Notes under the pieces: model-generated
What the model was told of the DNA's origin: nothing
Databases searched by the model: none
What the model saw: the letters and a program-made list of their open reading frames with translations, nothing else
Part shown: positions 4,217 to 57,276 of the stretch, in pieces
Numbering within the stretch: position 1 is the first letter of the stretch
Layout: the number at the start of each line of letters is the position of its first letter
Program-made: the position numbers and the translations under genes
Origin: an uncultured Gammaproteobacteria bacterium
Lineage (GTDB): Bacteria > Patescibacteriota > Patescibacteriia > Patescibacteriales > UBA12465
NCBI GenBank assembly: GCA_964435515.1
Contig: CAYSZD010000004.1
Location: forward strand, 11,955-75,954
Direction: 5' to 3'
Length of the DNA stretch: 64,000 nucleotides

Positions 4217-4477
4217 CTAATTACGATTTTTGATAAAATATTGGCCGAGACCAAATTCTAGTAATTTATTTTTTAGTTTCTTGTTTCGGTGCATATACAT
4301 AACCAGCGAACCCAACTCAATCTGATACCTATTTTTTATCACCTTAAATTTTAAAAGACTGCCAACTTGTAGTCCACGTCTAATGGTTTTAGGCGTTACT
4401 CCCGCTAATTTAGCCGCCTCACTAACAGAAAGCCAAATAGGATTTTTAGTGTTTAGCGATTTAAAGTGATTAAACAT
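4217..4477 (-). CDS. small helix-turn-helix DNA-binding protein (excisionase/MerR-like HTH_17 type)
   Basis: WLSVSEAAKLAGVTPKTIRRGLQVGSL is a typical HTH. Its promoter region carries two palindromic operators (4489-4577). Confidence 0.65.
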   Translation of the reverse strand: MFNHFKSLNTKNPIWLSVSEAAKLAGVTPKTIRRGLQVGSLLKFKVIKNRYQIELGSLVMYMHRNKKLKNKLLEFGLGQYFIKNRN

Positions 4478-4488
4478 TATTGTGGTAT

Positions 4489-4514
4489 TTAAGTCTAGTT
4501 ATATCTAGACTTAA
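4489..4514. promoter_or_regulatory. palindromic operator 1: TTAAGTCTAG-N6-CTAGACTTAA
   Basis: Perfect 10-bp arms at 4489-4498 and 4505-4514, 12 nt upstream of the HTH gene start. Confidence 0.6.
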
Positions 4515-4549: not shown

Positions 4550-4577
4550 CTTAAGTCTATGTTATATTAGACTTAAG
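4550..4577. promoter_or_regulatory. palindromic operator 2: CTTAAGTCTA-N8-TAGACTTAAG
   Basis: Perfect 10-bp arms at 4550-4559 and 4568-4577. Same half-site as operator 1. Confidence 0.6.
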
Positions 4578-4691: not shown

Positions 4692-5180
4692 TTAGGGAGA
4701 GAGTATAATTTGAGCCTCATACTCTTGCTGCAGATTATCTCGATAATCGGCAATTGATTCCCAAAAGTCTAAGCCTAAGCCCTCTATGGTTGCCACTAAA
4801 GCGTAGCTGAGAGTAGAGTTATAGGCTATGAGTTTGATGTAAAGAGTCTGGTCAAGCGGTAGTTTAGTGCCATATTTGGTGCTAGTTTTTTTAGCGCCTA
4901 AATATGAATCACTAAAATAGACAAAGGAGACATCATTTATATCTCTGATAATATAGCCAATGGGACTATCTAGCCTATTTTCTATACTTATCTTAGCCTC
5001 GTCAGCATTGAAGGCGGGCCAGATAGTAATTTTTACATTACCCAATACTCCGGGCATGGGGCCGAGAACATATTCGCCGTCATTGTTGTAGTCGGGCACA
5101 ATAATTTGATTTATCACCTCCTCTTTTTTACAAGCAGAAAGGATAATTAAAGAAAGAAAAAAAATTGTTATTTTTTTCAT
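4692..5180 (-). CDS. lipoprotein, unknown function
   Basis: MKKITIFFLSLIILSAC is a signal peptide with lipobox L-S-A-C. The mature part looks all-beta. Confidence 0.65.
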   Translation of the reverse strand: MKKITIFFLSLIILSACKKEEVINQIIVPDYNNDGEYVLGPMPGVLGNVKITIWPAFNADEAKISIENRLDSPIGYIIRDINDVSFVYFSDSYLGAKKTSTKYGTKLPLDQTLYIKLIAYNSTLSYALVATIEGLGLDFWESIADYRDNLQQEYEAQIILSP

Positions 5181-5365
5181 GATACATAGATTTTAAGGTT
5201 CAACTTATTGCTCCTATAATGCCAAAAATATTCAAATTTGTCAATTAATTATTTCTCCTTTTTTAAGCTTAGAAGCTTGGCTTTTTATCATTATTATGAT
5301 AGGATGAGTGAGTAAAATTTTGATTGATGAAAACGGGGCCTTGGCCCTCATTTTTGATTATATAC

Positions 5366-5953
5366 ATGAACGCAAATATATTAAAAAAATTTAAGGACAA
5401 GCAATTATTGCAACAGTTAAAGCATAAAGATAAAGAAGCGTTTATTAAAGTCTATGATGAATACGCTGAAGATTTATACCGCTTTATCTATTTTAAGGTT
5501 GGTAAAGAAACAGAGGCACAAGATCTAACTTCTTTAGTATTTCTAAAAGCTTGGCATCATATTCAAGCTAATTCTTTAAGTGATAGTAAGACGCTCAGAG
5601 CTTTAGTATATAAAATAGCTCGTCATGCTGTTATTGATTATTATCGAGAGGGAAGTAATAAATTAGAATTGTCTTTAGATGATGAAAATAATCCGATTGA
5701 GATAATTGATGATGATCAAAATTTAGCTGATAAGCTTGATAAGGCTAGTGATTTAGCTTTGCTTAAAAAACAACTACCGCTATTAAAAGAAGAATACAGA
5801 GAAGTTATTATTCTGCGATTTGTGAATGACTTAAGTTTAGAAGAAATAGCTGATGTTACCTCTAAGAGTCGTGGTAATGTGAGAGTTATTCTGCACCGAG
5901 CCTTAGCCGCTTTAAAGGAAATGGTTGAAAAAGAAATGGAGAAGAAGAAATAA
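5366..5953 (+). CDS. ECF-type RNA polymerase sigma-70 family factor (sigma A of this window)
   Basis: Region 2 (DLYRFIYFKVG..AQDLTSLVFLKAW) and region 4 HTH (LSLEEIADVTSKSRGNVRVILHRALAALKE). ATG at 5366. A sigma70-like promoter, TTTAAG-N17-TATAAT, lies at ~5191-5219. Confidence 0.85.
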   Translation: MNANILKKFKDKQLLQQLKHKDKEAFIKVYDEYAEDLYRFIYFKVGKETEAQDLTSLVFLKAWHHIQANSLSDSKTLRALVYKIARHAVIDYYREGSNKLELSLDDENNPIEIIDDDQNLADKLDKASDLALLKKQLPLLKEEYREVIILRFVNDLSLEEIADVTSKSRGNVRVILHRALAALKEMVEKEMEKKK

Positions 5954-5967
5954 TAATTATTATTAGT

Positions 5968-6516
5968 TTATTTGAATAAAAAAGATTCTAAATCTTTTTT
6001 GGTTAATAACATGCTGTAGTTAGCATGTTTTTTTAAAGCAAAACTAACTTGATGCTTAAAGCTAATATACTCTACATTTTTACCTAAATGTTTTATTTTT
6101 AAAATAGCTGGTATGAGATCAGTGTCAGAGGATATAATAATTGCAGTATTGTAGAGATTTTCATAAGCCCCTACTAATAAGTCTACAGCAATTTTTACAT
6201 CTACTCCTTTTTCATGAAAGACGCCCTTATTATTCATAAGGTATCCTTTTTTAATAATTATACTCTGTCTTTCTAAAGCATTGAGTAAGTTTAATTGTTT
6301 TTCTCTTTTTGCTTGATTGATAAGGTCTGTGTTCTTTGTTTTTATAATACCAACATAATAACGACGAGAAATGCTTTGACGACCTGCGCACAGATAATCA
6401 CAAAGCTTTGCATAATTAAATTTAGTTGTATTTCTAATTTTTAAGTCCTTCAGCTTATGATATAAATTGCTACCATCAATATAAACGCAGACTCGTATAT
6501 TTAATAGTCTGTTCAT
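5968..6516 (-). CDS. NYN-domain (LabA/DUF88, PIN-like) putative ribonuclease
   Basis: VCVYIDGSNLYH, GVDVKIAVDLL and IIISSDTDLIPAI are the conserved acidic motifs of the NYN fold. Confidence 0.8.
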   Translation of the reverse strand: MNRLLNIRVCVYIDGSNLYHKLKDLKIRNTTKFNYAKLCDYLCAGRQSISRRYYVGIIKTKNTDLINQAKREKQLNLLNALERQSIIIKKGYLMNNKGVFHEKGVDVKIAVDLLVGAYENLYNTAIIISSDTDLIPAILKIKHLGKNVEYISFKHQVSFALKKHANYSMLLTKKDLESFLFK

Positions 6517-6520
6517 ATAT

Positions 6521-6613
6521 AAAAAAAGCCCACCGTGATCTCTTTCGAGACCAGAGTGGGTGGGGTAAGTAAAAATAATATAGAATCTATAGTAATCTTA
6601 TATTTCTTCTGAT
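6521..6613 (-). ncRNA. candidate ~95-nt leader/sRNA ending in a strong intrinsic terminator that abuts the NYN start codon
   Basis: Minus-strand promoter: TTGACA (6642-6647), 16 nt, TAAAAT (6620-6625). Hairpin CCCACTCTGGTCTC-GAAA-GAGATCACGGTGGG (6529-6560) followed by U7 (6521-6527). No ATG in the transcript. Confidence 0.45.
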
Positions 6614-6758
6614 GATCTAATTTTAACATAAGTAGATTTATTGTCAACGACATATTTTATTTATAATCATCATCTATCTTATTCGGCCACTTTTCAGTAT
6701 AGCAATATGACGATAGCAGATTAATAACATTTCTTAATCAACCTATTATCAAGGTATT

Positions 6759-6787
6759 AAAAAAAGCCCATCGATGAAGATGAGCTT
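6759..6787 (-). terminator. rho-independent terminator of the 6809-7126 gene
   Basis: Minus strand: AAGCTCATC / GATGGGCTT 9-bp stem followed by a U-run (plus-strand A-run 6759-6765). Confidence 0.7.
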
Positions 6788-6808
6788 TTGAATTAAAGAT
6801 ACTAAGTA

Positions 6809-7126
6809 TTAGATAGCGTCTTTAACTAATGGCGGGTACCCTAGAATAGAGATGCCCAATTCTTTTCTTTCTTTATCGCTCTTTATTTTTCGAACGACAT
6901 CTTTTGGTCTGATTGGTTTACCACCAAAGACCTCTGTCGCTACCAGGTAACGCTGACGCTTGTGGTCAACGGATTCCAAGGTTGTCGATACCTTGTCGGT
7001 AGCAATGACCTTGAGTAAGCCATTGGGCAGTTCGTTGGTATAGTCTACCAATCTACCCGTGTGCGAGTTGCCCCAGAGGTATCCAATAAGACCTCCGAAA
7101 AAGAAAGCAAAAATAATTAATGCCAT
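6809..7126 (-). CDS. N-terminally membrane-anchored small protein, unknown function
   Basis: MALIIFAFFFGGLIGYLWG is a TM anchor followed by an 85-aa soluble part. A TTGACA-N17-TTTAAT promoter lies on the minus strand (7255-7260 / 7232-7237). Confidence 0.55.
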   Translation of the reverse strand: MALIIFAFFFGGLIGYLWGNSHTGRLVDYTNELPNGLLKVIATDKVSTTLESVDHKRQRYLVATEVFGGKPIRPKDVVRKIKSDKERKELGISILGYPPLVKDAI

Positions 7127-7323
7127 GATGTTTTGTTTTGTGGAATGTGCGACAACTAGAGTAAGAGTCTTAGCTGTTAGCCTAGGTGTGGCAACATTCC
7201 TGGTTTAAAAAGAACTGTTAACTGTATTTATATTAAAGCATATTTATATAACTTTGTCAAGGAAGATTTGTTTTTAGGGATTGCTTCTATTTAGCTATTT
7301 TTCCCCATAATCTTGATAATTAT

Positions 7324-7352
7324 TAGACTTAAGTCTAGAAATATGTAGACTT
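7324..7352. promoter_or_regulatory. operator 3: TAGACTT + AAGTCTA-N8-TAGACTT
   Basis: Same half-sites and the same 8-nt spacing as operator 2: AAGTCTA 7331-7337, TAGACTT 7346-7352, plus an extra abutting half-site at 7324-7330. Confidence 0.55.
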
Positions 7353-7409
7353 ATCTTTTCTAAATCTAATAAAGCTCAATATTTATAGGCTTTTTCTCTT
7401 CTTTATAGC

Positions 7410-7437
7410 TGTAACGTTTTAGTCATTTATCCGTATG
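7410..7437 (+). promoter_or_regulatory. ECF-type promoter TGTAAC-N16-CGTATG
   Basis: TGTAAC 7410-7415, a 16-nt spacer, CGTATG 7432-7437. The ATG of the downstream gene is at 7447. This matches the TGnAAC-N16/17-CGT architecture of Bacillus sigma X/W/M-type ECF promoters. Confidence 0.5.
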
Positions 7438-7446
7438 CTATAGTGT

Positions 7447-8286
7447 ATGACAAATAAAGACTTTCTCTCACAACTTAATACTTTGAAAGAAATTCGTCCT
7501 CAATCAGCCTGGTTAAAAAGTAACCGGGAGATTTTGTTATCTCAAATTTCTAACTCAGGGGCAGAACAACTTTCATATTGGCAGAAGATTATTATTGATT
7601 TAAAAAGTTTTAGCATGGTTGTTTCTAAACCGGTAGTAGTGATGGCCTCTTTATTTGCCTTCCTATTAGGCACCTCTGCTTTTGCTCATTTAGCTTTTAA
7701 CAGTACTCGTCCTAATGACTCTTTATATATTGCTAAAATTATTTCTGAGAAAGCAAAGCTTAGCACTGTTTTTAACGCTCAAGAAAGAGAGAAATTAGAA
7801 GCTCAGTTTGCTGTTGGTCATGCTGAAGGTATTAGTTCTGTTTTAGCTGAGGCTAAAATTGATGATAGCAATGAAGATCAATTAGCTAGTTTAAATAATG
7901 ATTTCAATAAAGAGATAAATATTGTTAGAGAGAAGATTGCTGTGATATCTAAGAATGTTAAGAAAGATGAGCCTGTTGCAAATATTGATATTAATATAGA
8001 GGCTTCCAGTTCTCTTGATACTTTGGTTAGCGTGGCTGATAACGGTAAAGATGAACAGGGAACTCAGATTAGTATTAATAACACAGAGAAAGATATTGAC
8101 ATAGATGTTGTTAAGGCTAGTAGCACTGAAGATGTTGAAGCCGAACCAGAAATTGATACAGCTAATAAGGTGGAGGAGCTAAAAAATCCTGAACTTATAT
8201 TAGAGGAAGCTCAGATATTATTTGAATCTAAAAATTATCAAGGAGCACTTGATAAGATTAAGGAGGTAAAAGAGTTAATTAAGTAA
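7447..8286 (+). CDS. single-pass membrane protein with acidic extracytoplasmic domain (possible anti-sigma/sensor partner)
   Basis: A 60-aa cytoplasmic N-terminus, a TM helix (VVVMASLFAFLLGTSAFAHLAF) and an acidic low-complexity C-terminal part. It is preceded by the ECF-type promoter. Confidence 0.6.
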   Translation: MTNKDFLSQLNTLKEIRPQSAWLKSNREILLSQISNSGAEQLSYWQKIIIDLKSFSMVVSKPVVVMASLFAFLLGTSAFAHLAFNSTRPNDSLYIAKIISEKAKLSTVFNAQEREKLEAQFAVGHAEGISSVLAEAKIDDSNEDQLASLNNDFNKEINIVREKIAVISKNVKKDEPVANIDINIEASSSLDTLVSVADNGKDEQGTQISINNTEKDIDIDVVKASSTEDVEAEPEIDTANKVEELKNPELILEEAQILFESKNYQGALDKIKEVKELIK

Positions 8287-8338
8287 TGTTTTTCGTCCTT
8301 TTACCATTGTTCTTTTAGTTATTTTTAAAAATAACTTT

Positions 8339-8810
8339 CGCCGGTGTTTATTAGTTTATCTTTGACAGCGATACCTTTTCAGAAGATCAGATTACTGCTT
8401 TCTTCCGATCTGGATTGTACTCATAAGATAAATTAATAAATCCTGGCGACTACGGATTAGTGGAGCAATCTACTCTTTCCGCTTAGCTCGGGTTAGCGAG
8501 CCTAAATAAAGGTCGTGCCTTGTAACAAAGGTTGGCCTCGCTCATTATAAATTACATATTTTCCCCCTGGTTTTCTTTGTTTCATCTTTATTTTGATTTT
8601 TTCTATTTAGAAAAGAAGTTGTCGTAATAAGCTAATAAGAAATCCCGTAGATTGATTAAGCTTTTCTCCAGCCTCGGCTAAACAGCCTTTCAGGCTGGCA
8701 TTACTTAATTGTCTTACCGGTCTTTAAAGCTTGTTTCCGCTGACGCGTTGGTGAGGCGGGATTCCGATCAATTTATAAATTTTCTTAAAGGCATAGAACG
8801 ACTCCGGAAA
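8339..8810 (+). ncRNA. candidate large structured 5' leader or ncRNA (unclassified)
   Basis: ORF-free region. A 22-nt helix, 8339-8360/8427-8448, pairs 21/22 positions, and its 3 G-U pairs are valid only on the + strand. Further hairpins lie at 8668-8698 and 8736-8760, with long-range pairing 8462-8473/8647-8669. Confidence 0.45.
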
Positions 8811-8946
8811 AGAAGAATAGATTTTGATAAATATAAGAAAAAGATAAAGAATTAACTAAGGGATAAGGAAGATAAAACTTATATCATTTAGATATTGTTC
8901 TCGCTAATATTGTGCGGACAAGTCTGAGTGATTTCAATTATTACTT

Positions 8947-11900
8947 ATGAAAAAATTACGCAAATTTCTAGTTGTCAGCGTAATGGTATTATCAATTATC
9001 GCTATGAGTGGTTTAACCTTTAATCCGGTTAATGCTGCTGCTCAAGCTGGTGATTTGATTAAAATGGATGGTTTATCATCTGTTTATTACCTTGGCAACG
9101 ATGGCAAGAGATACGTTTTCCCTAGTGAATCCGTATATTTCTCTTGGTACAATGATTTCAGCGGCGTGGTAACCATTCCTGCTTCTGAATTACAATCATA
9201 CCCATTAGGCGCAAACGTAACCATGAGACCTGGTACTAAGCTTGTAAAGATCACTACTGATCCTAAAGTTTATGCAATTGGTCAAAATGGTACTTTACAC
9301 TGGGTACAATCCGAAGCTGATGCTATCGCTTTATATGGCGCTAACTGGGCTTCAAAAGTTGTAGACGTAGCTGATGCTTTCTTTACTAATTATACTATTG
9401 GTACAGCTTTAACTTCTGGTACATATCCTGCAGGCACTCTTTTAAAGAATGCTAATAATGCAAGTATCTACTACTTTGATGGTACAAACTACCGCATGAT
9501 TTCAAGCGAATCAGCTTTCATGGCTAACCGCTTCAATTATGACAACGTAGTTACTACAACCATGACTTTAACTGCTTCTGGTAATGCTATTAATGGTATG
9601 GAGGATTTCTCTAAACCATCCGGCGCTACTAGTGGTTCAGTTGTTACAAATTCTGGTTTAAGCGTAGCTTTAAGCTCAATGACTCCAGCTTCCATGAATA
9701 TTCCTGGAAATTCTTCAGTTGAATTCTTAAAGATTAACTTAACCGCTGCTAATGATGGTCCAGTTAATGTTTCTAGCATTAAATTAACCGCTTATGGTTT
9801 AAGTGATGCTCAAAACATTGATGATGTAACTTTTTATGATGGTGGAATGAAGATTGGCACTTCTAAGAATATTAGTTCTGACAGAGTTGCTACTTTCAAT
9901 TTTGCTACTCCTATTTACATCGGTGCTGGTTCTACTAAAACTTTAACAGTGAAGGCTACTGTTGCTTCAACATCTGGTAGTTATGGATTAGGTATTGCTG
10001 CTGCTACAGACGTTATGTCTAGTGCTGCTACAGTAACCGGTTCTATGCCTATTGTTGGTAACTTAATGTCAGCTGTTAGTGCTTCATTAGGCACTCTTAC
10101 AATTGTTGATGTAGATCAAAGTAAAACTGTTAGCTTCGGTGAAGATAACGTTTTATTAGCAGATTTCACCTTAGAAACTTCTAATGATGAAGATGCTTTA
10201 TTGCAATCTATTAGTCTTTACAATGGTGGTACCAACGCTAATGACGTAGTATCTAACCTAAAAATGATTATTGATGGCGTTGAAGTAGCTACCGGTTCTT
10301 ATACAGATCGTTATGCTTATTTCAATTTAAATGGTTATCAAATTGAAAAAGGTAAGAATGTTTCTGTTGAGGTTCGTGGCGACATGGGCGTAACTAGTAG
10401 TGGTGACACTATTAAATTATACCTTAAGGATAATTTAGATTTAGTTGCTCTTGGTAAGACTCATGGATTCAACATGGGTATTACTAACAACTTTAATAGT
10501 GTTCTTACTAGCGTTGTATTATCTACTGGTGATTTTACTATTGATATGGATAAATCTGCTACTCCTGCTAAAGATGTGAAACCTGACACAGATGGAGTTG
10601 TACTTGCAACTTTATCTCTAAAATCAAATGGTGAAAATGCAACTATTACTGATATTGCTGGTTCTGGTTTCTATGTAACAACCGGTACTGGTACAAGTAC
10701 TATATTATTAGAAAACGTTAAGATGGTTGATAAATCTAACGGCGGTATTTATGATTTAGCTATTGCTACTTCTTCAACTGCCACTCGTCAAGAATTAACA
10801 TTATCTGACGAAATCGCTTTAGTTAAAGGAGTTGCTAAGACTTTTGAAATTAAAGCTGATATCTTAAGCATCGTTCCAGAAAATACTACCTTACAGGTAG
10901 AATTAAATGGTAGTGCTATGGCTATTGAAGGTGATGTTTCTGGTGCTGATATCAATGATATTACTCCAAGCAGCGTTGCTGGTTCTATTATTACCGTTAA
11001 AGACGCTTCTTTAACTTTAATTCCTGTAACTTTGACTAATGTTAGCGTTGTTGGTGGCCAAAAAGACGTAGTTGTTTATCAAGGTAGATTAAAAGCTGGT
11101 AATGCTGATGCAGTTAAGCTTTTATCTGTTAAATTAACAGCTGCTTCAAGTTCCGCTGCTTATGCTTTCACTAATAGCAATATTAGCAAGTTAAGTTTAT
11201 GGTTGAACGGTCATGAGCTAAAGGCTGTATCTAACCAAATCAATGAAACTTCTAAGACTATTACTTTCAGCTCTTTAGACACAGCTTACTATACAGTAGC
11301 TGCTGGCACTGAAGTTGATTTAATGGTTAAGGCTGATTTTGCTTCTAGCGTTACAACTGGTGACTTCAAGTTAAGTGTTGATAATAATGCTGACATGACT
11401 GCTCGTTCATTTGTTGGCAATAACACTGTTACTCCTTCAACTGCAAGCACTGATTCTAGAATTGTTACTACTGTAGATAAAGGTACTCTAACAGTTGCTT
11501 TAGTAACTACTGATGCTAAAGCTAATAGAGATTCAATGTTATTAGCTGGTTCTCAAACTGAAGCTGATCGTTATCTTGGTGAAATTAAATTCACTACTGC
11601 TAATGAAGCTATTAAAGTTAGCACCTTAGCTTTAACTAAGAAAGCTGGTGCTACCGCAACTAATGCTGACTTGAAAGAAGTTAAATTAGTTAAGGCTGAT
11701 GGCACAGTTGTTGCTACTAAGACTGTTAATGCTGATGGTTCAGTAACTTTTGATCCATTCGATGTAGTATTTGACGCTGATCAAGCTACTTCATTATTCA
11801 TTGTTGCTGTAGCTAAAGGTTTAAATGTTAATGGTGATCCAACTGCAACTGCAACTTCCGGCCGTACTATTCAGTATTCTTTAGGCACGGTAACTGCTAT

Positions 11901-12474
11901 TGGTAATGCATCTGGTTCTACTATTACACCTACTGCTCCTGTAACAGATTCTAAGACTGCTACTATTGTTGGTTCAAAGCTTAACTCTATTGTTAATGCT
12001 ATGAATGACGGTCAATTGACCGGTGGTACCGCTAAGACTATTGGTAAATACACTTTTGTATTTGACAATGGTAACAACAGAAATACATCTGATAATACTG
12101 AATTAAAAGCTGTGTTAACTGACTTAGTAATTAACATTTCTAAGAGCGCAACTACTTCTATAGCTAATGTTAAGGTTCAGATTGAAGGCACTTCTGATAA
12201 GAGCGCTGCCGCTACAGTAACAGGAACAGCTACTGCACCTATCGCAACATTTGCATCCGCTGATTTAGACGATCTAACAGATGGTGCTAAATTAGACGGT
12301 ACTGTTACTTTAGTTGTTTCAGCTGACATTACTACTACTTCTGAGGATGGTGAATACTTACAGACTTCTATGGCCGACACTTCACTTGCTCTTGATTACA
12401 CAAGTAATGGTATAGCTCATACTACTATGCAACTTCCAATGTCTGAGGTTGTAGGTGGTACATTAAGCGAATAG
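8947..12474 (+). CDS. giant secreted S-layer-like surface protein with ~6 tandem beta-sandwich modules
   Basis: Signal peptide MKKLRKFLVVSVMVLSIIAMSGLTFNPVNAAAQA, followed by an N-terminal LIKMDGLSSVYYLGNDGKRYVFP domain. Repeated ~110-130-aa modules share the pattern (V.L..F.L.A....V.V.S..L.........V.L..DG..V....F......I..G.S..L.VKAD). The protein is A/T/S/V/G-rich with strongly biased GCT/GGT/ACT/GTT codons. Confidence 0.85.
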   Translation: MKKLRKFLVVSVMVLSIIAMSGLTFNPVNAAAQAGDLIKMDGLSSVYYLGNDGKRYVFPSESVYFSWYNDFSGVVTIPASELQSYPLGANVTMRPGTKLVKITTDPKVYAIGQNGTLHWVQSEADAIALYGANWASKVVDVADAFFTNYTIGTALTSGTYPAGTLLKNANNASIYYFDGTNYRMISSESAFMANRFNYDNVVTTTMTLTASGNAINGMEDFSKPSGATSGSVVTNSGLSVALSSMTPASMNIPGNSSVEFLKINLTAANDGPVNVSSIKLTAYGLSDAQNIDDVTFYDGGMKIGTSKNISSDRVATFNFATPIYIGAGSTKTLTVKATVASTSGSYGLGIAAATDVMSSAATVTGSMPIVGNLMSAVSASLGTLTIVDVDQSKTVSFGEDNVLLADFTLETSNDEDALLQSISLYNGGTNANDVVSNLKMIIDGVEVATGSYTDRYAYFNLNGYQIEKGKNVSVEVRGDMGVTSSGDTIKLYLKDNLDLVALGKTHGFNMGITNNFNSVLTSVVLSTGDFTIDMDKSATPAKDVKPDTDGVVLATLSLKSNGENATITDIAGSGFYVTTGTGTSTILLENVKMVDKSNGGIYDLAIATSSTATRQELTLSDEIALVKGVAKTFEIKADILSIVPENTTLQVELNGSAMAIEGDVSGADINDITPSSVAGSIITVKDASLTLIPVTLTNVSVVGGQKDVVVYQGRLKAGNADAVKLLSVKLTAASSSAAYAFTNSNISKLSLWLNGHELKAVSNQINETSKTITFSSLDTAYYTVAAGTEVDLMVKADFASSVTTGDFKLSVDNNADMTARSFVGNNTVTPSTASTDSRIVTTVDKGTLTVALVTTDAKANRDSMLLAGSQTEADRYLGEIKFTTANEAIKVSTLALTKKAGATATNADLKEVKLVKADGTVVATKTVNADGSVTFDPFDVVFDADQATSLFIVAVAKGLNVNGDPTATATSGRTIQYSLGTVTAIGNASGSTITPTAPVTDSKTATIVGSKLNSIVNAMNDGQLTGGTAKTIGKYTFVFDNGNNRNTSDNTELKAVLTDLVINISKSATTSIANVKVQIEGTSDKSAAATVTGTATAPIATFASADLDDLTDGAKLDGTVTLVVSADITTTSEDGEYLQTSMADTSLALDYTSNGIAHTTMQLPMSEVVGGTLSE

Positions 12475-12527
12475 TTAATTGCTATAAGCTAAAGAGTCTT
12501 CCTAATTTCCTTTAATTAATTAGGTAA

Positions 12528-12570
12528 AGAAAAGAGCGGCCATTTGGTCGCTCTTTTCTGTTTGTTTTAA
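12528..12570 (+). terminator. strong rho-independent terminator
   Basis: AGAAAAGAGCGGCC-ATTT-GGTCGCTCTTTTCT 14-bp stem followed by a T-rich tail. Confidence 0.85.
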
Positions 12571-12652
12571 AACAGCTTCTTTTTATATTATTTTGTAGCC
12601 TTAACATGCTACAATGAAATGGATTATGATATAACTAATATTTATTTGTACC

Positions 12653-12681
12653 TGAAGAAAACCCTTCTTCTAAACGTATTA
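12653..12681 (+). promoter_or_regulatory. ECF-type promoter TGAAGA-N16-CGTATTA (autoregulatory candidate)
   Basis: GAAGA 12654-12658 and CGTATTA 12675-12681, 42 nt upstream of the sigma gene ATG. The same motif recurs at 14204-14231. Confidence 0.45.
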
Positions 12682-12722
12682 ATATATAGGATGCAAGAAA
12701 GCTTGAAAAATATGTATGAATT

Positions 12723-13310
12723 ATGTTAAGTGATGTGTCTAATATTGAAGAGCAGAGTGATTCTGACCTAGTGTTGGCTAGCTTAGCTAATCCTGAGTCT
12801 TTTTCGGCTATTATAAAACGCTATGAGAGACCCTTATTTCTGTACATCTCTCGTATCACTAATGTTTCTCATGATGAATGTGACGATATATTACAAGAGG
12901 TATTTATTAACTGTTATCTAAACCTTAACGATTATAATAGTGATTTAAAATTCTCTTCCTGGCTCTATCGTATTGCTCATAATCAAGCCATTAGTCACTA
13001 TCGCAAGCTTAAAGCTAGACCAGAGGGTCATATGCTAAGCATTGATGAAAGTGAAGCTTTAGACTTAGTATCTAGTCTTGATATAGGACTAAATATTGAT
13101 ATTTCTTTAAATCAGGAAAGTATTACTCGTGTATTATCAGCTTTGGATAAAAAACATCGAGAAATATTAGTGTTAAAATTTTTAGAAGAGAAAAGCTATC
13201 AGGAGATATCAGATATTATTAAAAAACCACTGGGAACAGTTGCTTCAAGTGTTAATCGGGCTAAATCGGCTTTTAAAGAAGAGTTTAATAGGCAAGCTAT
13301 TAAATTATAA
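12723..13310 (+). CDS. ECF-type RNA polymerase sigma-70 family factor (sigma B of this window)
   Basis: Region 2 (DILQEVFINCYLNLNDY..FSSWLYRIAHNQAISHYRK) and region 4 (KSYQEISDIIKKPLGTVASSVNRAKSAFKEE). Confidence 0.85.
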   Translation: MLSDVSNIEEQSDSDLVLASLANPESFSAIIKRYERPLFLYISRITNVSHDECDDILQEVFINCYLNLNDYNSDLKFSSWLYRIAHNQAISHYRKLKARPEGHMLSIDESEALDLVSSLDIGLNIDISLNQESITRVLSALDKKHREILVLKFLEEKSYQEISDIIKKPLGTVASSVNRAKSAFKEEFNRQAIKL

Positions 13311-13320
13311 TTTTTTATAT

Positions 13321-14106
13321 ATGGAAGATAATAATTTAGTTGATAAAATAATAACTAAAATCAAGCATGAGGGCTTAGAGCCTAAACCTCGTTGGCATTT
13401 TTTATTGAAAGATTATGTGGTGTGGATTAGTGGCGCTTTAGCTTTGATTTTTGGTGCTTTAGGGGTATCAGTTATCATCTATTTGTTAAAATATAATAAT
13501 TGGTCAATGGGCAGCTTGGGGGATAAGAGTTTTTTAAGCTTTATGATTATGACCATGCCCTATTTTTGGCTCCTGTTTTTAGCTATTTTTATCTTTGTTT
13601 TATATTATAATATTAAACATCTCAAGAAAGCCTATTTATATCCAGTGAAAGTTATTATCCTTTTAGCTTTTTTGAGCAGTATTCTTTTAGGCGAACTTTT
13701 CTATCTCTTTGGCTTTGGTGAGGAAATTGATGAACTGTTAGGGGCTAAAGCTCCTTTATATGGTGAAATGTTTAACCCACAACTTAATTTCTGGTTTCAG
13801 CCAGAGGCTGGTCGTTTAGCTGGAATGGCTATTATAACAGATGATGGCTTAGAACTTATTGATCCTAGTGGTAAAATATGGCAAATAGTTTTAGCTAAAG
13901 AATTAAAAGTTTTGCCTGAAATTGTCTCTTATGAGCCTTTAAATATTCTTGGATCCATTGAGTCGGAACAGGTATTTAAAGCTCAAATAATCAAAGCTGT
14001 GCGTCCTGGCAGAGCCTTTATGAAGCGACCAGGAAGAGCAGGGTGCCCTCCAGGAGTTCCTTGTGAGCTTAAAGCTCCTATGCCGGAACGTTTAAGAAAT
14101 AAATAG
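13321..14106 (+). CDS. multi-pass membrane protein immediately downstream of sigma B (candidate anti-sigma/partner)
   Basis: ATG at 13321, 10 nt after the sigma stop. It has a short cytoplasmic N-terminus, ~4 TM helices, and a C-terminal soluble domain ending in a P/R/G-rich tail. The track start at 13240 overlaps the sigma gene and is rejected. Confidence 0.65.
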   Translation: MEDNNLVDKIITKIKHEGLEPKPRWHFLLKDYVVWISGALALIFGALGVSVIIYLLKYNNWSMGSLGDKSFLSFMIMTMPYFWLLFLAIFIFVLYYNIKHLKKAYLYPVKVIILLAFLSSILLGELFYLFGFGEEIDELLGAKAPLYGEMFNPQLNFWFQPEAGRLAGMAIITDDGLELIDPSGKIWQIVLAKELKVLPEIVSYEPLNILGSIESEQVFKAQIIKAVRPGRAFMKRPGRAGCPPGVPCELKAPMPERLRNK

Positions 14107-14203
14107 TTGTTGATAATTTATAAGCCCCTTTTAGCAATGCTAAAAGGGGCCATTAGCTTTACAGCTTCAGGGACTCTTTTGTTTTCATATTTTTGAATTC
14201 TGT

Positions 14204-14231
14204 GGAAGAAATTTTTATATTCAACGTATTA
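14204..14231 (+). promoter_or_regulatory. ECF-type promoter GGAAGA-N15-CGTATTA
   Basis: GAAGA 14205-14209 and CGTATTA 14225-14231. It shares both boxes with the 12653-12681 element. Confidence 0.45.
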
Positions 14232-14242
14232 GTTAGTGAAGG

Positions 14243-14264
14243 CGAATAATTCGCGAATAGTTCG
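14243..14264. repeat. two abutting 11-bp palindromes, CGAATAATTCG and CGAATAGTTCG
   Basis: Read directly at 14243-14253 and 14254-14264, in the leader of the 14309 gene. Confidence 0.6.
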
Positions 14265-14308
14265 TCTGGTTAATAATTAATACGTTTTTAATTAAACGAA
14301 GAAAATAT

Positions 14309-14728
14309 ATGAAAAACAAAAATTTAGTTAGAATTACTTTTGCCTTAGCGGCAGTTGCCTTGATTGGTGGTGGAATTATAGCAGCTCAAGCTGCTAGCAG
14401 TGATACAGCTTTTGCTAATAGACGAGCAGAAGCTCCTCTAAATGCTTCTAGCTTAGAAGTTAGGGCAGAGCGTCAAGCTCAAATGGAAGCTAACAGAACA
14501 GCTAGTTTAGCTGCTATAGAAGCTGGAGATTATGATGCTTGGAAAGAAGCGGTAGGAGAAAATAATCCTTTTGCTGATCAAATCACAGCAGAAAACTTTA
14601 GCAGATTTGTTGAGGCTCATAATTTAAGAATGCAGGCAGATTCTATCATGGCCGAATTGGGTATTGATATGCCACAAGGACATGGCGCTCAGAGACGGGG
14701 CAGAGGAATCCATAGAATAGCACAATAA
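14309..14728 (+). CDS. secreted/anchored helical protein, unknown function
   Basis: N-terminal signal/anchor (ITFALAAVALIGGGIIAAQAASS) followed by an Ala/Glu-rich helical part. Confidence 0.6.
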   Translation: MKNKNLVRITFALAAVALIGGGIIAAQAASSDTAFANRRAEAPLNASSLEVRAERQAQMEANRTASLAAIEAGDYDAWKEAVGENNPFADQITAENFSRFVEAHNLRMQADSIMAELGIDMPQGHGAQRRGRGIHRIAQ

Positions 14729-14885
14729 TTTTTTGGATATTTAAATAGATAAAAATAAGTCCTTTTAAGGGCTTATTTTTTGATCTTTAACTATCTTTTA
14801 AAATTATAAACAATTTTTTTCATTGACCATGTTTTAGTCCTGGTTTATAGTTAATATAGCTTTATATAAATTTAATATAAACCAT

Positions 14886-15466: not shown

Positions 15467-15682
15467 ATGGAAAAACTTATCTCTTTAAAAGACTTACGTC
15501 TAAACATGGAAAAATATGCTAGTCAGGTGAAACAGGGTCAGTCTTTTATTATTCTAAAACGTAGTAAGCCTATTTTTCAAATTAATCCAGTATCTCAAGA
15601 TGGTGATTGGGAAGAATTAATTAATTTTGCCCAAATAAAGAAGGGTGGTGTGGAAATTAAAGATTTATTGAAGCTACTTTAA
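15467..15682 (+). CDS. type II antitoxin, Phd/YefM-like
   Basis: 71 aa. The N-terminal ISLKDLRLNMEKYASQVKQGQSFIILKRSKPIFQINPV matches the Phd/YefM fold pattern. It lies 6 nt upstream of the toxin ORF. Confidence 0.65.
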   Translation: MEKLISLKDLRLNMEKYASQVKQGQSFIILKRSKPIFQINPVSQDGDWEELINFAQIKKGGVEIKDLLKLL

Positions 15683-15688
15683 TGACTT

Positions 15689-15925
15689 ATGAATAAGATT
15701 GAAAAAGCTTTGAAAAAATTATCAGCTTCAGAGCGCCAAGTTTTTAAAAAAATGTTAATCTCTATTCAGTCTGGTAAATTGTCTAATTTAGATATTAAGA
15801 AGTTAAAAGGCAGAACAGATATTTATCGTGTAAGAAAGGGAAGAATGAGAATAATTTTTCAAAAAATAGCTGATGATGATTATAGAATTTTAACTTTAGA
15901 AAGAAAATCAGAGAATACATATTAG
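15689..15925 (+). CDS. type II toxin, RelE/ParE superfamily (short form)
   Basis: KKLKGRTDIYRVRKGRMRIIFQKIADDDYRILTLERKSENTY matches the LKG..g.yR.RvGdyRiif core of RelE/ParE toxins. Confidence 0.6.
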   Translation: MNKIEKALKKLSASERQVFKKMLISIQSGKLSNLDIKKLKGRTDIYRVRKGRMRIIFQKIADDDYRILTLERKSENTY

Positions 15926-16064: not shown

Positions 16065-16676
16065 ATGGCTATTTTAACTAAAAAACAAAAAGAAGTATTT
16101 GATTATATCTCTAGCTATGAAAAAGATTATGGCTACGCCCCCTCCTTAAATGAAATCAAAGAAGCTATGGGAGCTTCAGCCGTCTCTACTATTCATGAAC
16201 ATGTAAGTAATTTAATTAAGAAAGGCTTTATTAAAAGAGCCAAGGGCTCAGCTAGAAGCTTAGAGCTCTTAAAGCTCAAGTTAGCTGAAACAATGTCAGT
16301 GCCATTACTTGGTTCTATTGCTTGCGGTGAGCCTCTTGAAGCTATTGAGGAGAGTGATGAGGCAGTGTCTATAGTAGACGACAAACGCTTTAATATTTCT
16401 GATTTATATGCTTTAAGGGCTAAGGGAGACTCAATGTTGGGAGATGGTATTTTTAATGGTGATTATTTGATTGTAAGAAAGCAATCCTATGCTAATAATG
16501 GCGATACTGTTGTTGCTATTATCGATGACAATGAGGCAACTTTAAAAAGATTTTATAAGGAACAAGGAAGAATTCGTTTGCAACCTGCTAATGAAAATTA
16601 TGAACCTATTTATCGCAAAGAAGTAGAGATAAGAGGGGTGGTGGTAAGGGTTATTCGTGATTTAGTAGCTGTTTAA
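16065..16676 (+). CDS. lexA: LexA repressor (S24 peptidase)
   Basis: N-terminal winged HTH (LTKKQKEVFDYI...APSLNEIKEAMG.SAVSTIHEHVSNLIKKGFI), an AG-type cleavage region, and an S24 domain with GDSM...K. Confidence 0.9.
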   Translation: MAILTKKQKEVFDYISSYEKDYGYAPSLNEIKEAMGASAVSTIHEHVSNLIKKGFIKRAKGSARSLELLKLKLAETMSVPLLGSIACGEPLEAIEESDEAVSIVDDKRFNISDLYALRAKGDSMLGDGIFNGDYLIVRKQSYANNGDTVVAIIDDNEATLKRFYKEQGRIRLQPANENYEPIYRKEVEIRGVVVRVIRDLVAV

Positions 16677-16894: not shown

Positions 16895-16970
16895 CTTGAC
16901 ATTACAAGTAGAAGTGTTAATTTATAATAAGTTCTTTGAAAAAAACAATAATTAAAATAGGAGGTTGATT

Positions 16971-19112
16971 ATGAGTATTAGTATGGAGATGATAACCTTG
17001 ATTATGCTGGTTACGGGCGGTTTATCCGCCTTGGCTTACATGATAGGCCAACAGCATTGGCTCCGACGGCAAGTTGTTAGGGAAAAGCCAATTCAACTAA
17101 TTGCCGATGAGATAAAAAAGGGCGTTTATAGTTTTATTAAAAGGCAGTATTCAGTTGCCTTTGAAATTATTGGCGTGTTTTTTATCCTTTTAGTGTGGAT
17201 GGCGTATAATGACTTTATTACTTGGTATACCCCATTCGCGGTGTTAAGTGGTGCTGGTTTTTCCGCATTGGCAGCTTATTTGGGTTTGTTAGCAGCTGTT
17301 AAAGCAAATGCAGCAACAGCCCATGCTACTAAAAAAGGCTTGGCCGAATCTGTGAAAACAGCTATTAACGGAGGAGCAATAATGGGCTTTTCTGTTTGTA
17401 GCTTTGGTATGTTAGATTTAGCTTTTTGGTATAGCTTGATCTATTTTCAAAATCCTAATATTTCTGTTTATGAATTTAATGAAATATTAGTGTCTACAAT
17501 CATCACTTTTGCTTTCGGCGCCAGCTTTATGGCTTATATGGCTAGAGTGGCTGGTGGTATTTTTACCAAATCAGCTGACTCAGCTGCTGATAGCGTTGGC
17601 AAAGGAGAATATGGTTGGGAAGAAGATGATCCTAGAAATCCGGCTACCATTGCTGATAATGTTGGCGATAATGTTAATGACATTCAGGCAATGGGGCAAG
17701 ATTTAAATGAGTCCTATGTAGCTGGTAATGCAGCCGCCATGGAAGCCGGTTTCTATTCTTTCAATACTCAGTCTGCTGTTTTTGGCGTATCTTTGGGTGT
17801 GAGTATTTTGGTTGGCTTGCCCTTGGCCGTATCGGTGATTGGTATTTTTGCGTCAATTATTGGTTTAACAGTATTGAAGGCAAAGAGCAATGATCTAAAA
17901 TCGCTCTTAAATGCTTTTAGAGCTGGTGTGTATTTAACATCTGTTTTAATTGCTATTGTCAGCGCTCCACTGGTATATTACTTATTCGGTGACTTGAATC
18001 GGTGGTATACAATCGTTATTGGACTGATTACTGGTAACGTATTGGCCAGTATATCTGAATATTACACTTCTACTGCATATAGCCCTGTTCGTCGTTTAGC
18101 TAATAAAGCTGAAGGTGGACATGCTAGCGTGGTAGTTGCTGGTGAATCATTGGGCAGGGAAAGTGTATTGTTTACAACTTTGGCTCTGTGCCTAGGTATG
18201 TTGGCAGCTTTCTATGTGTCTGGTGGTGGTAATTTTGCAGAGGGTATTTATGGGGTCAGCTTGGCAGCTGTTTCCATGCTTGCTACTTTACCCATTACTC
18301 TTACAATCGATGCTTTTGGGCCAATTGCTGACAATGCTCAAGGATTACTTGAGATGAGTCAAATTGATGGCGAAAGGCTGAAGATTGGTAATACCTTGGA
18401 TGCACTTGGTAATACTACCGCTGCTACTGGCAAGGGTTATGCCATTGGTTCAGCTGCTTTTGCAGCTATTGCTTTGTTAAATGCACTTTGGCACAGCATT
18501 GAAAGAAGTGTGATTCAGTTTAACTTACCAGCCATAGCATTAGGTTATGATAAGGTTATTTGGATTATGGCCGGTTTATTACTGGGCATTGCTGTACCGT
18601 GGATGTTTTCGTCCTATCTGTTAAAAGCTGTTGGTAATACTGCTTTTGTTTTAATCCAAGAGATTAAAAGGCAGGTAAAAGAACTTGGTATTTTGACTGG
18701 ACTTAATCCGCCTGACACTGAAAGATGCGTTAGCATTTCCTTAAAGGCAGCTCAAAGGTATAGTATCGTGCCAGCCTTATTGGTTATTTTAATTCCTTTC
18801 ATTGTAGCGGTAGTTGGCGGACCTTTAACACTCATCGCTTTTCTTACTGGTTCTTTATTTTCCGCTTTCACTCAAGCAGTTTATATGAATAATGCGGGTG
18901 GTGCTTGGGATAATGCGAAAAAACTGATTGAAGCTGGTTATTTGGGCGGCAAACATACTGATGCACATCGGGCTGCTATTACTGGTGACATGGTCGGCGA
19001 CCCCTACAAGGATACTGCTGGCCCAGCTCTTAACATTTTGATTAAGTTAATGGTGACCTTCTCCATTTTAATGGCTCCATTAACCATCTATTTGCATTCT
19101 GTATTGTTTTAA
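16971..19112 (+). CDS. hppA: membrane-bound H+/Na+-translocating pyrophosphatase
   Basis: ~16 TM helices. Diagnostic motifs are DNVGDNVND and GDMVGDPYKDTAGPALNILIKLM. SD AGGAGG is 6 nt before the ATG at 16971. Confidence 0.95.
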   Translation: MSISMEMITLIMLVTGGLSALAYMIGQQHWLRRQVVREKPIQLIADEIKKGVYSFIKRQYSVAFEIIGVFFILLVWMAYNDFITWYTPFAVLSGAGFSALAAYLGLLAAVKANAATAHATKKGLAESVKTAINGGAIMGFSVCSFGMLDLAFWYSLIYFQNPNISVYEFNEILVSTIITFAFGASFMAYMARVAGGIFTKSADSAADSVGKGEYGWEEDDPRNPATIADNVGDNVNDIQAMGQDLNESYVAGNAAAMEAGFYSFNTQSAVFGVSLGVSILVGLPLAVSVIGIFASIIGLTVLKAKSNDLKSLLNAFRAGVYLTSVLIAIVSAPLVYYLFGDLNRWYTIVIGLITGNVLASISEYYTSTAYSPVRRLANKAEGGHASVVVAGESLGRESVLFTTLALCLGMLAAFYVSGGGNFAEGIYGVSLAAVSMLATLPITLTIDAFGPIADNAQGLLEMSQIDGERLKIGNTLDALGNTTAATGKGYAIGSAAFAAIALLNALWHSIERSVIQFNLPAIALGYDKVIWIMAGLLLGIAVPWMFSSYLLKAVGNTAFVLIQEIKRQVKELGILTGLNPPDTERCVSISLKAAQRYSIVPALLVILIPFIVAVVGGPLTLIAFLTGSLFSAFTQAVYMNNAGGAWDNAKKLIEAGYLGGKHTDAHRAAITGDMVGDPYKDTAGPALNILIKLMVTFSILMAPLTIYLHSVLF

Positions 19113-26833: not shown

Positions 26834-26846
26834 TAGAGTGTTGATT

Positions 26847-27183
26847 GGGGCAAGTAAGCGGCCGCTTTTTTCGCATTAGCGAAAGAAGAGGAAAGTCCGG
26901 ACTTCATAAAAAAGACAGCGGATAATGTCCGCCAAGAGTAATCTTAGGGAAAGTGCCACAGAGACAATACTATCCGATTTATCGGAGAAAGGTGAAAAGT
27001 TGCTTGGTGTCTTTATCGGCTACAAGCAACAACTGCTGGTAACAGCATGTTTGGGGTAAACCCTGTCTGAAGCAAGAACAAAGCCTTAGCAATAAGGTAA
27101 AAAGTAGTTCGCTTGACTTAATTGGTGACAATTAAGCTAGATAAATGGCCGCTCACGACAGAATCCGGCTTATCGCTTGCCCT
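26847..27183 (+). ncRNA. rnpB: RNase P RNA, bacterial type A
   Basis: Universal motifs GAGGAAAGTCCGG (26889-26901 region) and ACAGAATCCGGCTTA (27158-27172 region). P1 pairing is GGGCAAG 26848-26854 / CTTGCCC 27176-27182. Length is ~337 nt. Confidence 0.9.
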
Positions 27184-27211
27184 CTATCAATACTAATTTA
27201 TTATTTTATAT

Positions 27212-35132: not shown

Positions 35133-35242
35133 GAAAGGGTAGGGCCTTAAAGATGATTTTGGTATTACACCGGAATCATCTTTTTTAATTTTCATTAGTA
35201 ATTTAGTATACAAAAAAAGACTTGTTAAAAGTCTTTTTTATG

Positions 35243-35326
35243 TGCCGCGAGAGGGGATCGAACCCTCACGAAGTTACCCTCACACGAGTTTGAGTCGTGC
35301 GCGTCTACCAGTTCCGCCACCGCGGC
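35243..35326 (-). tRNA. tRNA-Leu (anticodon CAA), class II with long variable arm
   Basis: Revcomp is GCCGCGGTGGCGGAACTGGTAGACGCGCACGACTCAAACTCGTGTGAGGGTAACTTCGTGAGGGTTCGATCCCCTCTCGCGGCA. The anticodon loop is CT-CAA-AC, the T-loop is GGTTCGATCC, and the acceptor stem has 7 bp. Confidence 0.9.
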
Positions 35327-57193: not shown

Positions 57194-57264
57194 TCGGGGA
57201 TCGTCTAACGGTAGGACTCCAGGTTCTGGTCCTGGCTATCGGGGTTCGAGTCCCTGTCCCCGAG
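57194..57264 (+). tRNA. tRNA-Gln (anticodon CTG)
   Basis: Acceptor TCGGGGA/TCCCCGA, 3-bp D stem, anticodon stem CCAGG/CCTGG with loop TT-CTG-GT, T arm CGGGG-TTCGAGT-CCCTG. CCA is not encoded. Confidence 0.85.
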
Positions 57265-57276
57265 CATCGATGAACT

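Follow-up and report, generated by a model that had tools for sequence, protein, structure and literature searches.

Gene content and promoters of the two sigma factor modules

The 64,000-nucleotide (nt) stretch of DNA analyzed here (the window; contig CAYSZD010000004.1, positions 11,955 to 75,954) is AT-rich (~33% GC), and its protein homologues place it in the Patescibacteria, with Falkowbacteria-like matches. It encodes two extracytoplasmic function (ECF) sigma factors, designated sigmaA and sigmaB, each associated with a gene for a membrane protein, together with a 1175-amino-acid (aa) secreted protein whose gene is preceded by a long structured RNA leader. An earlier sequence-only reading described these elements as an envelope island, in which two sigma regulons flank a surface-layer (S-layer) gene. 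The open reading frames (ORFs) that it named are all present where it placed them, and its three promoter-like motifs were found by direct reading of the sequence exactly as it gave them. Comparison with related genomes suggests a different arrangement, namely, two independent ECF sigma modules, each widely conserved in Patescibacteria, that probably lie side by side here by chance; taken as a whole, this explanation is held with good confidence.

Module A consists of a sigma70-type promoter, sigmaA, a TGTAAC promoter, a DUF5667-like gene, the leader, and the 1175-aa secreted protein gene. Module B consists of a GAAGAA-N16-CGTATTA promoter, sigmaB, and a gene for a protein with three transmembrane (TM) helices, followed by a second promoter of the same class with a gene for a small secreted protein. 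Terminator-like hairpins identified in a terminator scan (12528-12559, 14124-14150, and 14751-14780, all on the + strand) divide the right half of the region into separate transcription units, and the first of these predicted intrinsic terminators closes module A.

Both sigmaA (195 aa; 5366-5953, + strand) and sigmaB (195 aa; 12723-13310, + strand) match Pfam Sigma70_r2 and Sigma70_r4_2 as well as NCBIfam TIGR02937 (87.6 and 84.7 bits, respectively; cut-off 42.9), and no Pfam match to region 3 or region 1.1 was found in either. Neither fits a named equivalog: the nearest are the BldN-type TIGR02952 for sigmaA (120.5 bits, under the cut-off of 206.45) and SigW NF007223 for sigmaB (103.9 bits, under the cut-off of 209), and both proteins fall under every equivalog cut-off. 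SigmaA is preceded by a sigma70-type promoter, TTGGCT-N17-TAGGAT with an extended TG (5277-5305, + strand; -35 at 5277-5282, TG at 5297-5298, -10 at 5300-5305), as had been proposed, and this promoter is conserved in 33 loci with the consensus cTTGCTTT...TaTGATAnnAT. Between it and the sigmaA start codon sits a terminator-like hairpin followed by a T-run (CGGG..CCCGTTATTTTTTGTTAAA; 5335-5357, + strand), found in the terminator scan and kept in the 33 related loci, which may serve as a transcription attenuator. The TGTAAC motif was found upstream of sigmaA in none of the 33 loci, suggesting that sigmaA would drive its partner and not itself.

That partner is a single-pass membrane protein (7447-8286, + strand) with a weak match to DUF5667 (PF18915; 18.9 bits, under the gathering cut-off of 27). 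It has 292 homologues at E ≤ 0.001, and 8 among the 120 listed carry a precomputed PF18915 match. Its gene is preceded by the ECF-type promoter TGTAAC-N16-CGTATG (7410-7437, + strand), which begins 37 nt before the ATG. The corresponding consensus, cTGTAAC-N16-CGTATAyTA, is present in 42/42 unique loci, usually at exactly -37, so that the DUF5667 mRNA would be nearly leaderless; the end of the sigmaA gene and the -35 element overlap in most genomes. Although two inserted genes separate the pair in the window, the association of sigmaA with this partner is borne out by other genomes: in 30 of 35 related loci, the distance from the sigmaA stop codon to the partner gene is at most 200 nt (32 nt in most). 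Likewise, in three neighbourhoods at 58%, 48%, and 42% identity (loci L086, L087, and L088), the gene order is HU, a small helix-turn-helix (HTH) gene in the reverse orientation, the ECF sigma factor, and the DUF5667 gene, followed by a long gap and a protein of ~1140-1180 aa without a Pfam domain. An invariant 19-mer of the leader, scanned against a metagenome collection, retrieved 80 loci, of which 70 keep this cassette order (sigmaA, DUF5667 gene, long gap, and giant protein gene); the remaining ten matches were chance hits in unrelated coding sequence and were set aside.

A second candidate promoter of the sigmaA class, TGTAAC-N16-CCGTATA (1800-1825, - strand), has syntenic copies in L086 and L087, where it is divergent from a DNA_alkylation gene. 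About 160 nt downstream of it lies a conserved gene for a 48-aa membrane peptide (MKELSGFIGFL...; 1495-1641, - strand) with orthologues in L086 (1536-1682) and L087, which is likely to be an additional member of the sigmaA regulon. The TGTAAC sequence at about 8525, within the leader, was rejected as a promoter, being part of a hairpin loop and not conserved.

Module B was surveyed with one genome per species in 80 loci from Falkow-, Moran-, Komeili-, Magasanik-, and Nomurabacteria, among others. In the window, 10 nt separate sigmaB from the gene for the 3-TM protein (13321-14106, + strand). The same neighbours recur in 79 of the 80 species, with a sigmaB homologue immediately before the 3-TM protein gene at a spacing of 4-10 nt; the one exception is a locus cut by a contig end. 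In four of four long contigs, the ECF sigma gene ends 4-8 nt before the homologue of this gene, and in three of them a small gene without a domain match comes next. The 3-TM protein has no match in Pfam or NCBIfam; at E ≤ 0.001 it has 99 homologues, of which the few that carry an organism label are Patescibacteria. The small secreted helical protein (14309-14728, + strand) has homologues in 59 loci, usually directly downstream of the 3-TM protein gene and, in eight, 4.5-5 kb upstream. Its family is characterized by a signal peptide, tails rich in Gly, Met, and His, and a helical core in which an LTxxQ-like motif often precedes GDYxAW...NF..FVEAH.L.

The two promoters of module B are TGAAGA-N16-CGTATTA upstream of sigmaB (12653-12681, + strand), presumably autoregulatory, and GGAAGA-N15-CGTATTA upstream of the small gene (14204-14231, + strand). 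A strict motif (GAA[GA]A-N14-17-CGTA), for which the background is 0.02 per 250 nt, precedes sigmaB in 36 of 73 loci and the small gene in 35 of 59. More distant lineages carry tGAAAGAAA as the -35 element, and a motif relaxed to include this variant matches 47/73 and 52/59 of the sigmaB and small-gene promoters, respectively. The small protein is thereby upheld as a conserved sigmaB-class target, with the motif at 35-52 of 59 loci. In 30 of 36 genomes, the two promoters have an identical -35 type, as expected if one sigma factor reads both. The distinction between two ECF-type promoter classes made in the sequence-only reading stands: in many genomes, each class is physically linked to a single sigma gene. 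Within the window, GAAGA-N14-17-CGTAT has four matches against 0.26 expected, two of which (at 28514 and 38871) are intragenic and were taken as chance, and TGTAAC-N15-18-CGTA has two against 0.15 expected; these counts are much weaker evidence than the conservation of the motifs in other genomes.

The two modules do not travel together. None of the 80 sigmaB loci contains the giant secreted protein gene, the DUF5667 gene, or the NYN-domain gene that follows sigmaA in the window. In genome JAQUAK01, moreover, the modules lie at ~343-362 kb and ~515-532 kb, i.e., ~170 kb apart, suggesting that the island is a chance juxtaposition. The secreted protein gene belongs to the sigmaA cassette and is not flanked by two regulons.

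The secreted protein and the membrane partners

The giant secreted protein (1175 aa; 8947-12474, + strand) is predicted to consist of a signal peptide, a triple-repeat alpha/beta N-terminal domain (~residues 35-205), a linker, and approximately eight immunoglobulin (Ig)-like beta-sandwich domains (mean predicted local distance difference test score, pLDDT, 83). It has at least 1139 homologues of uniform length, without a Pfam domain or functional name, and among the 120 listed, the source labels are Patescibacteria or unnamed apart from two partial records. No match was found in NCBIfam, and neither the whole protein nor its N-terminal domain matched Pfam. The N-terminal domain has no relative by sequence in Pfam or the PDB, where a sequence search returned only antibody matches that are spurious, and it appears to be new. 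Foldseek matches of the protein are to generic tandem Ig-like adhesins, integrins, and macroglobulins.

The protein is thus shown to be a secreted multi-Ig surface protein. As to its earlier description as S-layer-like, no S-layer protein was among its top 50 Foldseek matches, and no SLH or CWB2 anchor domain was detected. An S-layer identity is accordingly treated here as a hypothesis. Predicted S-layer proteins of Patescibacteria have been reported in a 2024 preprint, without being identified in its main text. The main competing proposal is that the giant protein serves an episymbiotic cell of the candidate phyla radiation (CPR) as an adhesin for attachment to its host and is not an S-layer subunit. 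This proposal is a serious contender, if one that falls somewhat short of probable. The best fold matches are the PrgB Ig domains, Bap, and antigen I/II, which share with the giant protein a chain of beta-sandwiches after a signal peptide (Foldseek E down to 3e-16), and the lack of a known S-layer anchoring domain is consistent with an adhesin. However, the identities to these proteins are 8-11% with TM-scores below 0.2, the N-terminal domain has no relative, and, unlike them, the giant protein has no sortase signal or membrane anchor. Adhesins are also usually variable and multi-copy, whereas the giant protein is single-copy in the window and uniform in length, has more than 1000 family members, and always occurs with dedicated regulation, which fits a core envelope component.

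Both membrane partners are candidate anti-sigma factors, a role suggested by their position and topology. The cytoplasmic N-terminus of the DUF5667-like protein (residues 1-55) is highly conserved. For the 3-TM protein, the AlphaFold model (pLDDT 79) shows a helix at the N-terminus, the three TM helices, and a beta domain of five strands with a generic OB-fold (Foldseek matches to Ten1, IF1, RPA14, and CcmE, all with E-values > 0.01). Its ~30 residues before TM1 carry the conserved pattern KIK..I.PKPRWHFLLK, and the distribution of positive charges suggests that this N-terminus and a YYNxKHTKxGYRYP loop are cytoplasmic and that the OB-fold lies outside.

Alternatively, the partners could be plain envelope proteins of the respective regulons, with the sigma factors controlled otherwise, either transcriptionally or by unlinked factors. 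In agreement with that view, neither partner, searched at full length or by its N-terminus, matched an anti-sigma family in Pfam to E ≤ 1, and neither matched a solved anti-sigma structure by fold in Foldseek; the sigmaB partner has only its ~30 N-terminal residues in the cytoplasm, and the DUF5667 gene has its own promoter. It is nevertheless rather unlikely in light of the near-universal adjacency of both partners downstream of their sigma genes (79/80 at 4-10 nt and 30/35 at ≤200 nt), the N-in membrane topology of both, which is typical of anti-sigma factors, and the strong conservation of both cytoplasmic N-termini. Many anti-sigma factors lack the HxxxCxxC motif. For the non-canonical control proposed in the earlier reading, the absence of HxxxCxxC, on which that reading had relied, therefore says little by itself; the observations that stand are the lack of sequence matches of either partner to an anti-sigma family and the short cytoplasmic N-terminus of the sigmaB partner.

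Short anti-sigma domains, such as that of the CnrY type, are known (PMC7826278), and the very short cytoplasmic sigma-binding segment on a membrane anchor in the class II pair CnrH/CnrY would fit the N-terminus of the 3-TM protein. Unlike CnrY, this protein has three TM helices and an external OB-fold, and it shows no sequence similarity to CnrY. In the main text of PMC7826278, a classification of ECF sigma factors, three-TM anti-sigma factors appear in only one ECF group, and CPR lineages are not covered. Neither partner has the detectable N-terminal anti-sigma domain of ~80 aa found in class I anti-sigma factors (zf-HC2, RskA).

In their overall layout, both modules resemble SigW/RsiW and SigX/RsiX of B. 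subtilis, with a two-domain sigma factor of ~195 aa followed by a membrane protein gene, and with promoters that combine an AAC- or GAA-type -35, a CGTA -10, and 16-nt spacing. Module B further shares with these systems an autoregulatory promoter and a small regulon of envelope proteins. They differ from these systems in that both sigma factors fall under the equivalog cut-offs and the partners lack a detectable anti-sigma domain, that the ECF promoter of module A follows the sigma gene, and that the sigmaB -35 element is GAAGAA or GAAAGAA without the usual AAC. Thus, both modules are ordinary in logic (ECF sigma factor, membrane partner, and CGTA-type promoters) and new in their parts.

The small target protein of module B resembles CpxP, Spy, and ZraP in being secreted, all-helical, and tied to an envelope signalling system, and many members of its family are LTxxQ-like. 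In contrast, its matches lie far below thresholds: 2 of 25 family members match PF13801 weakly (best E = 0.0012), the window protein does not match it, and the full-length match of the small protein to ZraP (3lay) is weak (E = 3.3). The GDYxAW...NF..FVEAH.L core and the Gly/Met/His-rich tails are family-specific. Elsewhere, sigmaB modules adjoin genes for rubrerythrin, superoxide dismutase (SOD), AhpC, Fur, Zip, and cation transporters (L003, L004, and JGI 3300072015), and the sigmaB partner often ends in a Cys-rich tail, as the small protein does in Gly/Met/His-rich tails. These neighbours and tails suggest that the signal for sigmaB may be metal or redox stress of the envelope.

The intercistronic leader RNA

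The most novel part of the locus is the leader RNA that occupies the 660-nt gap between the DUF5667-like gene and the giant protein gene (8287-8946). The gap had been called a structured leader from the sequence, and this is borne out: it folds better than shuffled sequences (minimum free energy -195.5 versus -144.3 ± 5.9 kcal/mol; z = -8.6), and its helices are supported by covariation. In 70 of the 80 metagenome loci, the leader is flanked by homologues of these two genes and has a constant orientation, with a gap length of 432-824 nt (55 loci), and its conservation at the nucleotide level exceeds that of the flanking proteins. Abundant G-U pairs assign the structure to the + strand. A coding reading of the gap was rejected, with 12-19 stop codons in each forward frame and no conserved ORF. 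No Rfam family for the leader emerged at the gathering threshold or at E ≤ 10 (best E-value in the gap, 0.53), no second copy of the leader or paralogue of the giant protein was found within the window, and nothing relevant to such a leader RNA or to structured RNAs of the CPR was found in the literature searched. The leader is thus a genuine structured RNA of 450-660 nt with three domains, new to Rfam. To our knowledge, large structured RNAs of unknown function are rare.

Domain 1 (8339-8549, + strand) contains the helices P1 (8339-8362/8425-8448), P3 (8495-8502/8535-8542), and P4 (8518-8521/8530-8533). In a MAFFT alignment of 43 sequences, 96.0% of its paired cells are compatible with pairing, as opposed to 86.6% in shuffles (matched by 0 of 500), and 132 cells show double changes, as opposed to 33.8 (0 of 500). 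Compensatory changes occur at 18 of 32 pairs, and controls with slid partners are 35-45% paired. Domain 2 (8647-8779, + strand), closed by a helix with four compensatory pairs (8647-8656/8770-8779), shows 97.2% pairing, compared with 20-44% when the partners are slid, and contains two invariant single-stranded stretches, UUAAGCUUUUCUCCAGC and GCGGGAUUCCGA. Within it, GGCUGG (8693-8698) can pair with either the upstream CCAGCC (8668-8673) or a downstream UCAGYC (about 8730), leaving room for two mutually exclusive structures. Domain 3 (8883-8932, + strand) is a long hairpin with covarying positions (z = -4.1) that ends 14 nt before the ATG of the giant protein gene, the start of which has no Shine-Dalgarno sequence and a conserved AU-rich context.

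In most loci, domain 1 begins ~15-25 nt past the DUF5667 stop codon, and the terminator scan of the window found no terminator within the gap, suggesting that the leader and the giant protein gene are co-transcribed with the DUF5667 gene from the TGTAAC promoter. The leader most likely acts in cis, setting the stability, processing, or translation of the giant protein mRNA, and candidate functions include mRNA stabilization or processing, translational control, and sensing of a ligand or protein. Long structured 5′ leaders of the S-layer genes slpA of Lactobacillus and slpA of Thermus reportedly stabilize their mRNAs. The present leader would resemble them, on that account, as a long, stably folded untranslated region directly upstream of a gene for a large secreted envelope protein. 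It differs in being much longer (450-660 nt), in having three covariation-supported domains and invariant single-stranded motifs, and in its position between two cistrons with conservation across many CPR lineages.

More specific than a cis-acting leader in general is a riboswitch-like element responsive to a ligand or protein, in which sensing would fall to domain 2 and the 3′ hairpin would act as the expression platform, switching synthesis of the giant protein. The invariant unpaired stretches of domain 2, framed by variable, covarying helices, the two possible partners of GGCUGG, and the conserved hairpin abutting an AU-rich start region without a Shine-Dalgarno sequence are consistent with such a switch. 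However, no known aptamer class matches, the leader is far larger than typical riboswitches, and no terminator or sequestered start codon is evident, so this version is considered unlikely. Still less credible is the view that the element is a separate non-coding RNA gene, one that acts in trans and only happens to lie between the two genes. The size, multi-domain structure, and conservation beyond the flanking proteins would suit such a gene, whereas the 70 genuine copies all share one orientation and the same two neighbouring genes, most loci leave too little space for a dedicated promoter, no terminator precedes the giant gene, and conservation extends right to the start codon.

Proposed circuits, module organization, and neighbouring features

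In the cis-acting reading of the leader, combined with two independent modules, the following circuits can be proposed. SigmaA would be transcribed from its housekeeping-type promoter through the hairpin-containing leader of its own gene and, when active, would fire the TGTAAC-N16-CGTAT promoter. The DUF5667-like protein, as the putative cognate anti-sigma factor, would then create negative feedback on sigmaA, and the transcript would run on through the three-domain RNA of 450-660 nt into the giant protein gene. In module B, the GAAGAA-N16-CGTATTA promoter would drive sigmaB and the 3-TM protein as a classical autoregulated sigma/anti-sigma operon, with the ~30-residue cytoplasmic N-terminus of the 3-TM protein holding sigmaB and its external OB-fold domain possibly sensing the signal. 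The second promoter of this class would drive one conserved target, the small secreted helical protein. Module A is unusual both in the placement of its promoter and in carrying an undescribed large structured RNA. It is tentatively suggested that the leader represents a new, Patescibacteria-specific class of large RNA that, together with an ECF sigma factor and a new type of anti-sigma factor, meters the production of the major envelope (S-layer) protein of these ultra-small cells. No relevant report on DUF5667 or ECF signalling in Patescibacteria or Parcubacteria was found in the literature searched.

Several observations weigh against parts of this scheme, beginning with the lack of sequence or fold matches between the partners and anti-sigma factors described above. 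The sigmaA-class promoter lies downstream and not upstream of sigmaA, so the usual positive autoregulation is absent, and about a third of sigmaB promoters fail even the relaxed motif. The assignment of each sigma factor to its promoter draws on co-location and on the presence of only two ECF genes in the window. Finally, the leader may contain an internal promoter or a processing site; by eye, no convincing sigma70 or ECF promoter was seen between domain 2 and the ATG.

Besides its promoters, module A carries a candidate operator. The palindrome TTAAGTCTA-N7-TAGACTTA has exactly three copies in the window, where none is expected by chance: two (4489-4514 and 4551-4576) lie beside the start of a gene for a small HTH_17/MerR-like DNA-binding protein (4217-4477, - strand; HTH_17 E = 5.7e-5), and the third (7329-7353) lies ~60 nt upstream of the TGTAAC promoter. 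L086 and L087 carry the palindrome upstream of their DUF5667 genes as well, and in every cassette examined the HTH gene keeps its synteny with sigmaA. The palindrome is probably a shared operator through which module A gains a further layer of repression or activation. In two close relatives, L086 (about 3735) and L090, a sigmaB-class motif, GAAGAA-N16-CGTATTA, lies ~165 nt before the sigmaA homologue, which hints at a sigmaB-to-sigmaA cascade in some genomes. As a general feature, such a cascade was rejected: only 3 of 33 loci have the motif, and the window lacks it, with a lipoprotein gene (4692-5180, - strand) at the equivalent site.

Inheritance of the whole block as an integrated envelope island, with both sigma factors and their partners jointly controlling the giant protein, is very improbable and already largely refuted by the synteny: the physical adjacency of the elements in the window and the CGTAT common to both -10 elements are outweighed by the 80 sigmaB loci without module A genes, the distance in JAQUAK01, the strong terminator between the modules, and a different large gene that follows the giant gene in L086-L088. 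This last gene (L086 10879-12984, L087 14044-16530, and L088 13843-16335) encodes a second large, secreted-looking protein of 700-830 aa with beta-helix or faint pilin-N matches; it is absent from the window, where sigmaB occupies the place after the giant gene.

The interval between sigmaA and its partner (5954-7446) is an insertion hot spot in the clade of the window. The spacing is 32 nt in most lineages, including L088, compared with a 1.5-kb insertion in the window, where a lineage-specific insert on the - strand (5968-7126) holds the NYN-domain gene (5968-6516) and a gene for a 105-aa protein (6809-7126). The same interval contains a Gp49/HTH toxin-antitoxin-like pair in L086 (4503-5681) and a 430-nt spacer in L087.

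CPR/Patescibacteria represent a large share of bacterial diversity, and their envelope is essentially uncharacterized. The locus offers a candidate major surface protein that is conserved and has its own dedicated regulation, adds two families of membrane partners without a recognizable anti-sigma domain, and adds a large, covariation-supported RNA without an Rfam family. The ECF promoters can be read straight from sequence, so regulon prediction is possible across uncultured genomes. Should the leader and ECF feedback indeed act on an S-layer protein, they would provide the first molecular entry point into the construction and regulation of the CPR envelope.

Among the other features of the window, two small adjacent genes (71 and 78 aa; 15467-15925) downstream of module B resemble an antitoxin/toxin pair, judged from their sequences alone, and are followed by LexA (16065-16676) and an H+-pyrophosphatase (16965-19112), named from the Pfam labels of an identical contig (L001). 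At the gathering threshold, an Rfam scan of the window yielded nothing beyond RNase P RNA and tRNAs: a bacterial class A RNase P RNA (26846-27188; 240.8 bits), tRNA-Leu(CAA) (35242-35326, - strand), and tRNA-Gln(CTG) (57194-57265).

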